64,000 nucleotides of DNA from an uncultured archaeon (GTDB lineage Archaea > Altiarchaeota > Altiarchaeia > IMC4 > SCGC-AAA252-I15): the NCBI GenBank assembly GCA_902384455.1, contig CABMCB010000018.1:19008-83007 (forward strand), written 5' to 3'. Below are positions 35,999-42,522 of this stretch, piece by piece. A program made the translations under genes and the position numbers. Every line of letters begins with the position of its first letter. Within the stretch, counting starts at the first letter, position 1. A model generated the notes under the pieces. It saw only the letters and a program-made list of their open reading frames with translations, ran no database searches and had not been told where the DNA came from.

Positions 35999-36550
35999 AT
36001 GGTGGTTGGTGTGAAGAAAACGAAAAAGATTCAGAAGACTTCTCGCTCCTTGGGAAAAAAACCATCCGCTAAAAGCACCCCAACGAAGCCCACCAAACCC
36101 CCGGCCAAGCCGAAAAAGACGACTGCCCCAAAGAAACCAGTAAAAAAGGCCAAGTCAGCCGTCAAAAAGCCAATAAAGGCGGCGCCTAAAAAACAGTCTC
36201 CACCAAAGAGGGCAGCACCAACAAAGGCTGCCGCACCAAAAACCGCTGCGCCTAAAACAACGTACGGCGGGCCATCTACGCTTTCAGTGCCTATCACTCA
36301 CCCGTCTGACGTAGTGGTGATGGGCGAAGTCGTAACCCCCGCCAGCATCAAATCCTTGACTAAGGAGGCTAAACGTAAGATGCGGTTCACCATAGACGAC
36401 GTCAACATAGTCGACATCATACCCCATCAGGATCCAAACAATCTCTTCGTCAAGATTGCCGTAATAGACCGAGTCCAAGAAGAGGCCGTCAAAATGTTCC
36501 CTAAATCGGCAGTTAGGCGTCTGAACAAGATAACCTTGGAAATCCGTTGA
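35999..36550 (+). CDS. Hypothetical protein with histone-H1-like K/P/A-rich N-terminus and small globular C-terminal domain
   Basis: KKPVKKAK and AAPK repeats over about 85 aa, followed by an ordered beta/alpha-like region. Confidence 0.7.
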   Translation: MVVGVKKTKKIQKTSRSLGKKPSAKSTPTKPTKPPAKPKKTTAPKKPVKKAKSAVKKPIKAAPKKQSPPKRAAPTKAAAPKTAAPKTTYGGPSTLSVPITHPSDVVVMGEVVTPASIKSLTKEAKRKMRFTIDDVNIVDIIPHQDPNNLFVKIAVIDRVQEEAVKMFPKSAVRRLNKITLEIR

Positions 36551-36593
36551 TTGACGTAAAGAGCGCTTATTTGTTTATATGGCGGCTGCTCCT

Positions 36594-36749
36594 AAGGGGA
36601 TTATGAGGGGGCTCCGCTCGCTCACAACATAAAAACTCTCTGTCCGCGACCTTCCGCCGAGTCAAACTGTGACGTCGGGAGGCGGGGCGGACGGATTAAT
36701 AATCAAATAAACGACGACCCCCTCACCAATCTCCTTTTTGCAGTTTTTT
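36594..36749 (+). ncRNA. Candidate structured small RNA (rod with central bubble)
   Basis: Long terminal stem, A-rich bubble, GC-rich apical hairpin; upstream TTTATA and downstream T-tracts; G.U pairs favour the + strand. Confidence 0.55.
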
Positions 36750-36753
36750 GGGG

Positions 36754-36972
36754 TTATTGGAATAGAATCATCAGGGAGACTACGAGTCCGTATATTGCTA
36801 TGGCTTCTGCTAGGGCGACAAATAGTAGGACTTTTCCGCTTGTTTCGGGTTTTTCTTTTACTGCGTTTGCGGCTGCGGATCCTGTGGCTGCTATTGCGTA
36901 GGCTGATGCCATGGCGGCCATTCCTATTGCGAGTGCGGCGCATATTTCCTTGCCTACGTCTATTGAGACCAT
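36754..36972 (-). CDS. atpK: Stand-alone V/A-type ATP synthase proteolipid subunit K/c
   Basis: 72 aa two-helix hairpin from ATG 36972; loop EKPE; ion-binding Glu in ALAEAIAIYG. Confidence 0.88.
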   Translation of the reverse strand: MVSIDVGKEICAALAIGMAAMASAYAIAATGSAAANAVKEKPETSGKVLLFVALAEAIAIYGLVVSLMILFQ

Positions 36973-41181: not shown

Positions 41182-42522
41182 TTACGCCGCGTTTTGTGTT
41201 GGGTTGTTTATTTTTCCTATGAATAGTATGTTGCCGGTGTCTGTTTGTTGTATTATGTAGATGAAGGGGCGGTCTGCGCGGAATATTGGTGTTGGTGCGG
41301 GCATTGCGCTTGTGAGTCCGACTATGACTGCGGTTGCTGCGGCTGCTTCTGTGCCTTCTTCGTTGACTTCGACGTATGCTTGGTGTATTACGTCTGTTAT
41401 TGAGAGGTTTCTTGTTCCGTCCATGCCTGAGAAGTCGGCGTTTGAGGTGAATGCTGTTGGCATTCCCATGCTGCTTAGTTGCTGGGGCAGGAAGTATTTT
41501 GTTTCAACTTTGAATTTAGGCAGGTACACGTCCACGCGGCGTTCGTAGATGGAGTTTCTCCATTCCGAGATTTTCTCTGCGCTGATTTCTTTCTCAAATG
41601 CGGGCATATCGCCTTCTTTGGGCAGGAGTATCAGCATGGAGATTTCTTTTCCTTCGTAAGGCAGCTCCAGGATTTGTGTGCCGCTTATTTCGGCGTACTT
41701 GAACTTCGCTTTTTCCCCTGTTTTTTTCATCAAAGGAGCTTTTACTTTTGCGGTTGCGTTGACTTTGAAGTCTTCCTGCTTCGTGTTTGTTTCGTTGAAC
41801 TGCAGCACCCATTTGCCTTTGAAGTAGATTGCGTTGGTGAGCACAAGGCGCGTCATAGGCGTCAACGCTCCCTGAGGTATAAGGTCCTTGATTTTGTCGT
41901 TAGTCTTGTTTTCCACCCACGAGTTGATTATCTGCCTTGACCCTTCCGCGTTTGACACGTAGTCCATCGGCCTTGATTCTCCGCCGTACGAGTTTTGGAT
42001 GATGCTTGTGTATTCGGGGAGGAATGGGTAATTGTTCTGCGGCCAAATGGCGTTTGCCGTGGACAGCCGGTAGTCTTTGGAGCCGGCGTTTATTTGGTCT
42101 TGGATTTGTTTGAATGAGTTTCTTCTTGCCGCATCGTCGGAGGGAATGCCGAGGACTTTTTGCATTTCAGACGCCGTCTTTCCTCTTGCGCCTTCGTATG
42201 TCATTGAGAGCGCAGTTTCTATGCTCCAGGGCGAGAAGAATATGTTTCCGCCATCGTTCTTGAGGATTTCTTTGTAGAGGTTTATTGCGAACCTGTTGTT
42301 GGCTTCAACAAGAGAGGCGGCCTGCGTAGAAGGCACTGTAGTTGTTGGGTTTGAGGTAATTAGAGTTGTGGTGGTTGAGGAGGATTGAATGGAAATAACG
42401 GACGTGGTGGTCGAGGCTTCTTGTTGCGGGGTGGTTGTGGTGGTCGTCGGGTTTGGGGTGTTGTCTATGCATCCTGCAGCCAGTACTGTGAGCGCAATTA
42501 GGAGTAAGGCCGTTTTTTTCAT
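41182..42522 (-). CDS. Serpin (serine protease inhibitor), lipoprotein-like
   Basis: LAAGC lipobox, Thr-rich linker, NIFFSPWSI, NAIYFKGKW, EEGTEAAAAT hinge, FRADRPF. Confidence 0.95.
   Translation of the reverse strand: MKKTALLLIALTVLAAGCIDNTPNPTTTTTTPQQEASTTTSVISIQSSSTTTTLITSNPTTTVPSTQAASLVEANNRFAINLYKEILKNDGGNIFFSPWSIETALSMTYEGARGKTASEMQKVLGIPSDDAARRNSFKQIQDQINAGSKDYRLSTANAIWPQNNYPFLPEYTSIIQNSYGGESRPMDYVSNAEGSRQIINSWVENKTNDKIKDLIPQGALTPMTRLVLTNAIYFKGKWVLQFNETNTKQEDFKVNATAKVKAPLMKKTGEKAKFKYAEISGTQILELPYEGKEISMLILLPKEGDMPAFEKEISAEKISEWRNSIYERRVDVYLPKFKVETKYFLPQQLSSMGMPTAFTSNADFSGMDGTRNLSITDVIHQAYVEVNEEGTEAAAATAVIVGLTSAMPAPTPIFRADRPFIYIIQQTDTGNILFIGKINNPTQNAA

Follow-up and report, generated by a model that had tools for sequence, protein, structure and literature searches.

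A predicted single-copy RNA family of Altiarchaeota with a rod-and-bubble fold and its own promoter signature

The 64,000-nucleotide stretch of archaeal DNA analysed here (the window) contains, in one intergenic gap, a predicted RNA gene that represents a new conserved archaeal noncoding RNA family and, by sequence comparison, a member of none of the known families tested. Its homologs very probably constitute single-copy, independently transcribed RNAs of about 110-130 nt in a clade of Altiarchaeota, in which a closing stem is followed by a two-stranded A/U-rich bubble and by an apical arm that is often capped by a K-loop.

The source locus and its predicted fold

The element is present in a single copy in the source genome, an assembly of 2.4 Mb that is 92% complete, and its features are collected in Table 1. 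All motifs that the original prediction had named in this gap are in place, and the rod with a central bubble that it had described is recovered on folding. For the region 36590-36745 the folding energy is -57 kcal/mol (z -3.99, none of 200 shuffles as good), the shorter predicted RNA folds at z -3.76 relative to shuffles, and our final covariance model, which has the source element among its rows, scores 36605..36727 at 87.5 bits. The minus strand of the element folds equally well, at -61 kcal/mol (z -3.52, matched by 2 of 200 shuffles), so that folding cannot fix the strand, and the G.U pairs previously taken to mark the + strand fail as an argument. The hairpin CCGA-GTCA/TGAC-G-TCGG proposed for the apex is the energy minimum of the single sequence, but comparison of homologs places a K-loop there. 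This K-loop and a conserved AAC-purine motif in the bubble had been missed. At the element itself no tRNA, 5S, SRP or RNase P model gave a match, as had been claimed from inspection; covariance models located the 5S rRNA, SRP RNA and archaeal RNase P RNA of the source genome on other contigs. In the 20 nt downstream of the RNA, the pyrimidine share among the homologs averaged 0.62 compared with 0.55 further off, which is a weak signal.

Table 1. Predicted parts of the RNA gene and its flanking genes (positions in the window)
Feature	Position	Strand	Remarks
Upstream gene	35999..36550	+	Lys/Pro/Ala-rich N-terminus and conserved ~80-aa domain
Setting of the RNA locus			gap between + strand gene ending at 36550 and convergent - strand gene ending at 36754
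TATA box of RNA gene	36574..36581	+	-31 to -24; -28 to -25 A/T in 20/20 homologs
-10 A/T and initiator	36595..36605	+	predicted +1 = G36605
Predicted ncRNA, ~123 nt	36605..36727	+	3' end uncertain by a few nt
P1 closing stem, 5' strand	36605..36611	+	begins exactly at +1; partner 36718-36724
Weak inner closing helices	36615..36620	+	partner 36712-36716; predicted fold
Central bubble, 5' strand	36621..36638	+	AAC-purine at 36626-36629; C36628 = candidate template +1
Apical arm, 5' side	36639..36657	+	P2 36639-647, internal loop, P3 36650-657; partner 36674-36695
K-loop, predicted L7Ae site	36658..36673	+	tandem G.A pairs, C-G pair at -1, 3-nt N-R-U bulge, 5-nt loop
Central bubble, 3' strand, A/U-rich	36696..36711	+	unpaired in predicted folds; UAA conserved at >=70%
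P1 3' strand and 3-nt tail	36718..36727	+	tail = AC plus A/U/C in 14/20
Oligo-T tracts, probable terminator	36735..36749	+	from sequence
Downstream convergent gene, A/V-type ATP synthase subunit K	36754..36972	-	PF00137 E 2e-17; PRK06251

Several observations concern the source assembly and the window more widely. The archaeal RNase P RNA (C2:1-561) scores 71.6 bits, below the cut-off of 84, and lies ~130 nt behind the 3' end of an archaeal 23S gene, while the model search recovered only the 3' end of a 23S gene in the source assembly. The single 16S gene returned for this assembly (C6:1064-2419) is bacterial-type by eye and probably a binning contaminant, and it was therefore left out of the target tests described below. 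Three contigs (C4, C38, and C59) carry large tRNA arrays of about 22, 30, and 34 genes, and in two of the three arrays lies a bacterial class A-like RNase P RNA (79.8 and 95 bits, below the cut-off of 100; L076:1493-1782 and L077:1490-1827). Such arrays in an archaeal assembly could be due to contamination, a giant virus or a mobile element. The window also encodes a serpin (41182-42522, - strand; PF00079, E 8e-123) that begins like a signal peptide and contains a Thr-rich linker. A 170-nt DNA contig from sequencing runs covers 36636-36804 with 8 differences. For the neighboring aldolase, the closest named relative (75% identity) is labelled Ca. Altiarchaeota, and the genome of that relative holds a weak match to the RNA family.

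Homologs, covariation, and promoter signature

A blastn search of the element against 60 relatives returned only short chance matches, the best at 33.7 bits. Orthologs of the upstream protein occur in 14 of the 20 other genomes of the same family, and three of these 14, all members of a single other genus, have a similar rod behind the stop codon. We built a first covariance model from those three rods alone, leaving the source element out. The model returned that element as its only match in the source genome (29.5 bits, E 0.017) along with three new loci, for a total of 7 of 61 genomes. A second model matched 12 of 61 genomes, and a strict pattern search contributed three extra metagenome loci, all near already known members. 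A third model, of 15 rows, matched 17 of the 21 genomes of the family once each (16 at E<0.001 and one at 0.09), with 8 of the 17 matches falling outside its training rows; in good-quality genomes of the family, the RNA was single-copy in five of five. Beyond the family the third model gave matches in 4 of 40 genomes, namely one each in families f2, f3, and f4, all three in training, and one that we rejected. The latter, from family f5 (G035, E 0.015, 92 nt), runs antisense inside a 424-codon frame and is devoid of the arm. Two weak matches beside a helicase gene in family f8 (E 0.08 and 0.32) were also rejected.

The RNA accordingly counts 20 members among the 61 genomes of the phylum (Ca. 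Altiarchaeota-like), one copy each, 17 of them in the source family f1 and the others in f2, f3, and f4. These include the match at E 0.09, in which the promoter, the AAC motif, and the two ends are all present but the 3' strand of the bubble is shortened. In pairwise comparison the members are on average ~52% identical, and the source RNA is 43-56% identical to the others. Searches of limited sensitivity recovered no member in the searched genomes of families f5-f9 and of a second phylum, and 41 of the 61 phylum genomes were without a member; 38 genomes of another phylum, searched with no positive control, also gave none, nor did 10 of 11 in an overlapping set of genomes reached through named loci. 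Viral contigs searched with one strict pattern, and phages, gave no match, and motif searches of the 61 genomes performed no better than reversed controls among the matches listed. The RNA tree was poorly resolved, with 2 of 17 branches supported, and we therefore claim no order for gain and loss of the K-loop. Two further observations were made in these genomes. A tRNA match over 161 nt (L068:18-178, - strand), likely with a long intron, lies ~270 nt behind the RNA homolog of genome G017. The 16S gene of genome G023 (C5:1297-2942) measures 1646 nt, compared with about 1485 in two relatives, which suggests an insertion.

The comparison with Rfam that had been proposed places the element outside every catalogued family: the window had no gathering-level match, with just two chance-level ones nearby (E 4.9 and 8.6), and no Rfam model touched any of the 20 member loci. 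The literature surveyed, mostly at the level of titles and abstracts and with subscription journals and supplements largely outside its range, contained no paper on an archaeal 6S-like RNA or on one in Altiarchaeota; a motif in a supplementary table could escape such a survey.

The collection of homologs also allowed covariation to be examined. In a 7-row alignment the paired fraction of cells is 91.5% and both partners have changed in 17 of 32 pairs, a level that none of 500 shuffles reached, while slid controls pair at 33-47%. In a 22-row alignment, which includes two near-duplicates and the rejected G035 match and leaves out the weakest member, 92.4% of the cells pair (slid controls 39-47%) and compensatory change is seen at 23 of the 26 pairs. 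Because the covariance model was used to fit the two alignments, they are biased towards it. In the 22 rows, the terminal stem P1 is paired in 98% of the cells, with compensatory change in five of seven pairs, P2 in 96%, with compensatory change in all six pairs, and the P3 helices in 86-87%. The inner closing helices differ in register among the homologs, and in the 7 rows helix 2 is 70% paired and shows no covariation. G.U pairs and tandem G.A pairs are retained across the alignment. The 20 members range from 108 to 132 nt, with apical arms 44-58 nt long. Every one of them is more stable than its shuffles when folded on the sense strand (z -2.4 to -6.2), and 14 of the 20 lack a long reading frame spanning the RNA. 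The bubble is A/U-rich and variable around a 4-nt core, and its strands partly pair in the energy minimum of several members.

For the promoter, we took the G that opens the closing stem as +1, an anchor that comes from the RNA alignment and not from the promoter itself. Counted from this base, A/T occupies -28 to -25 in 20 of 20 homologs and -10 in 20 of 20, a pyrimidine stands at -1 in 19 of 20 and a purine at +1 in all 20; as a background, 3.1% of the YR sites in the source genome have the -28 to -25 plus -10 signature. On antisense reading, the signature was found in only 2 of 20 even with nine offsets, which supports the + strand as the sense strand. A sigma-70 promoter scan was set aside as unsuited to archaea. 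Because the signature puts the predicted +1 at 36605, the RNA would be ~123 nt long, and the outermost stem of the original prediction (36594-602/36728-736) would lie upstream of the start. That stem does pair, but it is probably not part of the transcript; the energy of the outer duplex is -10.4 in the source genome, -7.0 in one other, and no stronger than -5.6 in the other 18 of the 20.

An independently transcribed RNA of ~140 nt had been proposed, and of this the independence is strongly supported by comparison, through the promoter signature, covariation, single copy and variable neighbors, while the length is not. With convergent genes on its two sides and a fold on either strand, the source locus might be read as a UTR element, a two-way terminator, a MITE, or a DNA structure, and not as a free RNA. 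Across the 20 genomes, however, the upstream gene is divergent in 13 and on the same strand in seven (ORF lists read by eye), and such variable neighbors argue for an independent gene and make a UTR element or a MITE unlikely. The promoter signature in every member and the G.U and tandem G.A pairs kept in the alignment also count against a cis-acting element, as does the occurrence of one copy per genome, with one match in each positive genome and one in the source genome, which is contrary to the multi-copy distribution of a MITE. We consider a cis-acting element very improbable.

K-loop, bubble motif, and candidate partners

Two conserved features of the family bear on its function, the K-loop and the AAC-purine motif. 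By the definition in PMC5061560, a strict K-loop pattern is present in 10 of 20 members including the source RNA, a variant with a 2-nt bulge in two, and no K-loop in eight; the strict pattern appeared in 153 of 40,000 shuffles (0.4%). AAC-purine is found in the 5' bubble strand of 19 of 20 members, the remaining one having no AAC. In the 19-row alignment, its two A's are the sole invariant columns outside the terminal stem, and the C is conserved at 90% or more. This C stands 12-14 nt away from the apical arm in 16 of the 19 members (12 nt in the source RNA; the other three have 11, 16, and 17 nt), whereas its distance to the 5' end varies from 20 to 31 nt. The helix borders behind this spacing were set by hand, and the assignment of +1 was chosen after the data had been seen.

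The K-loop brings to mind an RNP derived from box H/ACA RNAs, in which Cbf5 would hold the closing stem and 3' tail, L7Ae the K-loop, and the large loop would be a chaperone or a non-catalytic pocket. Archaeal H/ACA K-loop guides are likewise single hairpins with a 7-bp basal stem, a short 3' tail, a large internal loop, and an apical K-loop whose G.A pairs point towards the loop below. In the new RNA the K-loop has the H/ACA orientation in its 10 members, a 7-bp stem starting at +1 is followed directly by a 3-nt AC-N tail in 14 of 20, and the source genome holds L7Ae-family and TruB/Cbf5-family genes. In a guide, however, the GA stem has to measure 10 bp and the ANA box has to follow the pocket by 14-16 nt (PMC4652768), whereas 18 of 19 members have 28-33 nt between pocket and tail, the arm is about twice too long, an ANA box is present in 7 of 20 (ACC in the source RNA), and the K-loop is absent in eight. 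A two-sided guide scan of the own rRNA in three genomes yielded two matches, both in one genome, with no target shared. Guide function was rejected on this geometry, and an H/ACA-derived particle of another kind appears distinctly unlikely. Even less probable is a regulatory RNA that base-pairs through its bubble with rRNA, tRNA or mRNA. Two long unpaired strands are indeed exposed, but the bubble is very A/U-rich and variable around its core, and the own 16S, 23S and spacers contained no Watson-Crick run of at least 10 nt in three of three genomes. The rRNA matches were three 9-mers, all from stems and none shared among genomes, and exact words searched against mRNAs of the source genome gave nothing beyond a few 12-14-nt matches.

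A scaffold or sponge for a non-polymerase protein that reads A/U-rich single strands between two helices, such as an Sm-like ring, a helicase, or a lineage-specific RNA-binding protein, is a more serious competitor, though in our judgment still an unlikely one. Any protein site could account for the fixed geometry and for a conserved single-stranded motif of this small size, and in 7 of 20 genomes the RNA gene is divergent from a gene for an Lhr-type helicase (ORF reading; family checked on one, PRK13767). The Lhr gene, however, also occurs in 20 of 40 genomes without an RNA match and with none nearby, so that it is no travelling partner, and a single motif with no repeats is unlike typical sponges. 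Nor does the upstream protein travel with the RNA: its domain is confined to f1 (15 of 61 genomes), whereas the RNA also occurs in f2-f4, and its gene adjoins the RNA in 4 of 15 genomes. It is a neighbor, not an obligatory partner. The protein had no Pfam or NCBIfam match, and no usable match in Protein Atlas; its model (pLDDT 87) has a weak winged-helix resemblance (best structural match Z 6.3, rmsd 2.9, 66 aligned), and 16 strong representatives with a variable, Lys-rich N-terminus were found among 1.84 billion proteins. It is possibly a chromatin protein.

Y RNAs are about 100-130 nt long, with paired ends and a large internal loop. The new RNA resembles them in length, paired ends, and internal loop; unlike the Y RNA/Ro60 system, it has no Rfam Y-RNA match, and no TROVE (Ro60) gene was found in the 92%-complete source genome.

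RNA polymerase as the predicted target

The 6S-like architecture of the original prediction stands as a layout, supported by fold and covariation, but not as homology. RF00013 gave no match at E<=10 in the source genome, the region or the 20 member loci, and in the reverse test our family model scored at most 4.3 bits against E. coli ssrS, so that a 6S RNA by homology was rejected in both directions. Bacterial 6S RNA (SsrS), of ~200 nt, is composed of a closing stem, a central bubble, and an apical stem (PMC8876501). The new RNA shares with it the unbranched rod, paired ends, A/U-rich central bubble, variable apical arm, and single copy, and differs in its length (108-132 nt compared with 183-200 nt), its archaeal TATA promoter in a host type without sigma-factor initiation, and the K-loop cap in half of its members. 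Short length is no bar to a decoy function, since 78-82-nt derivatives of 6S-1 still cycle in vitro (PMC8876501). As archaeal initiation depends on TBP/TFB/TFE and no sigma factor (PMC7289017), the contacts known from 6S cannot apply. A precedent closer to the archaeal enzyme is mouse B2 RNA, which inhibits the related polymerase II until transcription templated by the RNA itself brings release (PMC8058203). It shows that an enzyme of the archaeal/Pol II type can be blocked by an RNA and freed by copying it, although B2, in contrast to the new RNA, is a multi-copy SINE transcript.

By analogy with these systems, our leading mechanism is an open-promoter mimic for RNA polymerase, 6S- or B2-like, to which we give a probability of about 40%. 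The rod would fill the DNA channel of the archaeal polymerase as a pre-opened promoter, with the closing stem standing for downstream DNA, the apical arm for upstream DNA, and the 5' bubble strand for the template strand. Since polymerases begin transcripts with a purine, the C is the one base of AAC that can serve as template start. The C of AAC-purine would be the +1 template base, and the purine next to it, at -1, would give a pyrimidine-purine initiator. The 12-14 nt from there to the apical arm would correspond to the melted region from -1 to -13; the archaeal transcription bubble spans -12 to +4 (PMC4495717). E. coli 6S, whose template start is U44 (PMC8876501), has a purine at -1 and, measured alike, 14 nt from this base to the apical helix. 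The bound polymerase would be held idle until a short product RNA opens the closing helices and brings about release. This product is predicted to start with GUU, as does that of B. subtilis 6S-1 (PMC8876501).

Beyond the three-part layout of 6S, the open-promoter mimic is favored by the finding that the invariant sequence outside the terminal stem sits in the unpaired 5' bubble strand. Against it, a 3' hairpin released after a mock 14-nt product was seen in only some members, and the lack of a member in 41 of the 61 phylum genomes, in searches of limited sensitivity, is odd for a general regulator of polymerase. Because the +1 base was chosen post hoc and any protein reading a fixed geometry would be able to impose the same spacing, we keep the figure no higher. 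More doubtful is the fuller proposal of an archaeal counterpart of 6S, in which a polymerase-bound pre-opened promoter would be copied into a GUU-starting release RNA without a sigma factor and an L7Ae-bound K-loop, where present, would kink the arm about where TBP bends the TATA box.

At minimum, the family adds an RNA gene so far uncatalogued: it is conserved, occurs once per genome, has a predicted promoter of its own, and belongs to an archaeal lineage known only from metagenomes. The open-promoter mimic predicts a product starting at one base, and twenty natural variants exist, some with the K-loop and some lacking it. The global inhibitors of archaeal transcription named in passages of a review are proteins, TFS4 and RIP (PMC7289017). 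Judged by analogy, the new RNA most plausibly works like 6S RNA; if it is indeed an open-promoter mimic, RNA control of RNA polymerase, known in bacteria (6S) and mammals (B2), would be found in archaea as well.
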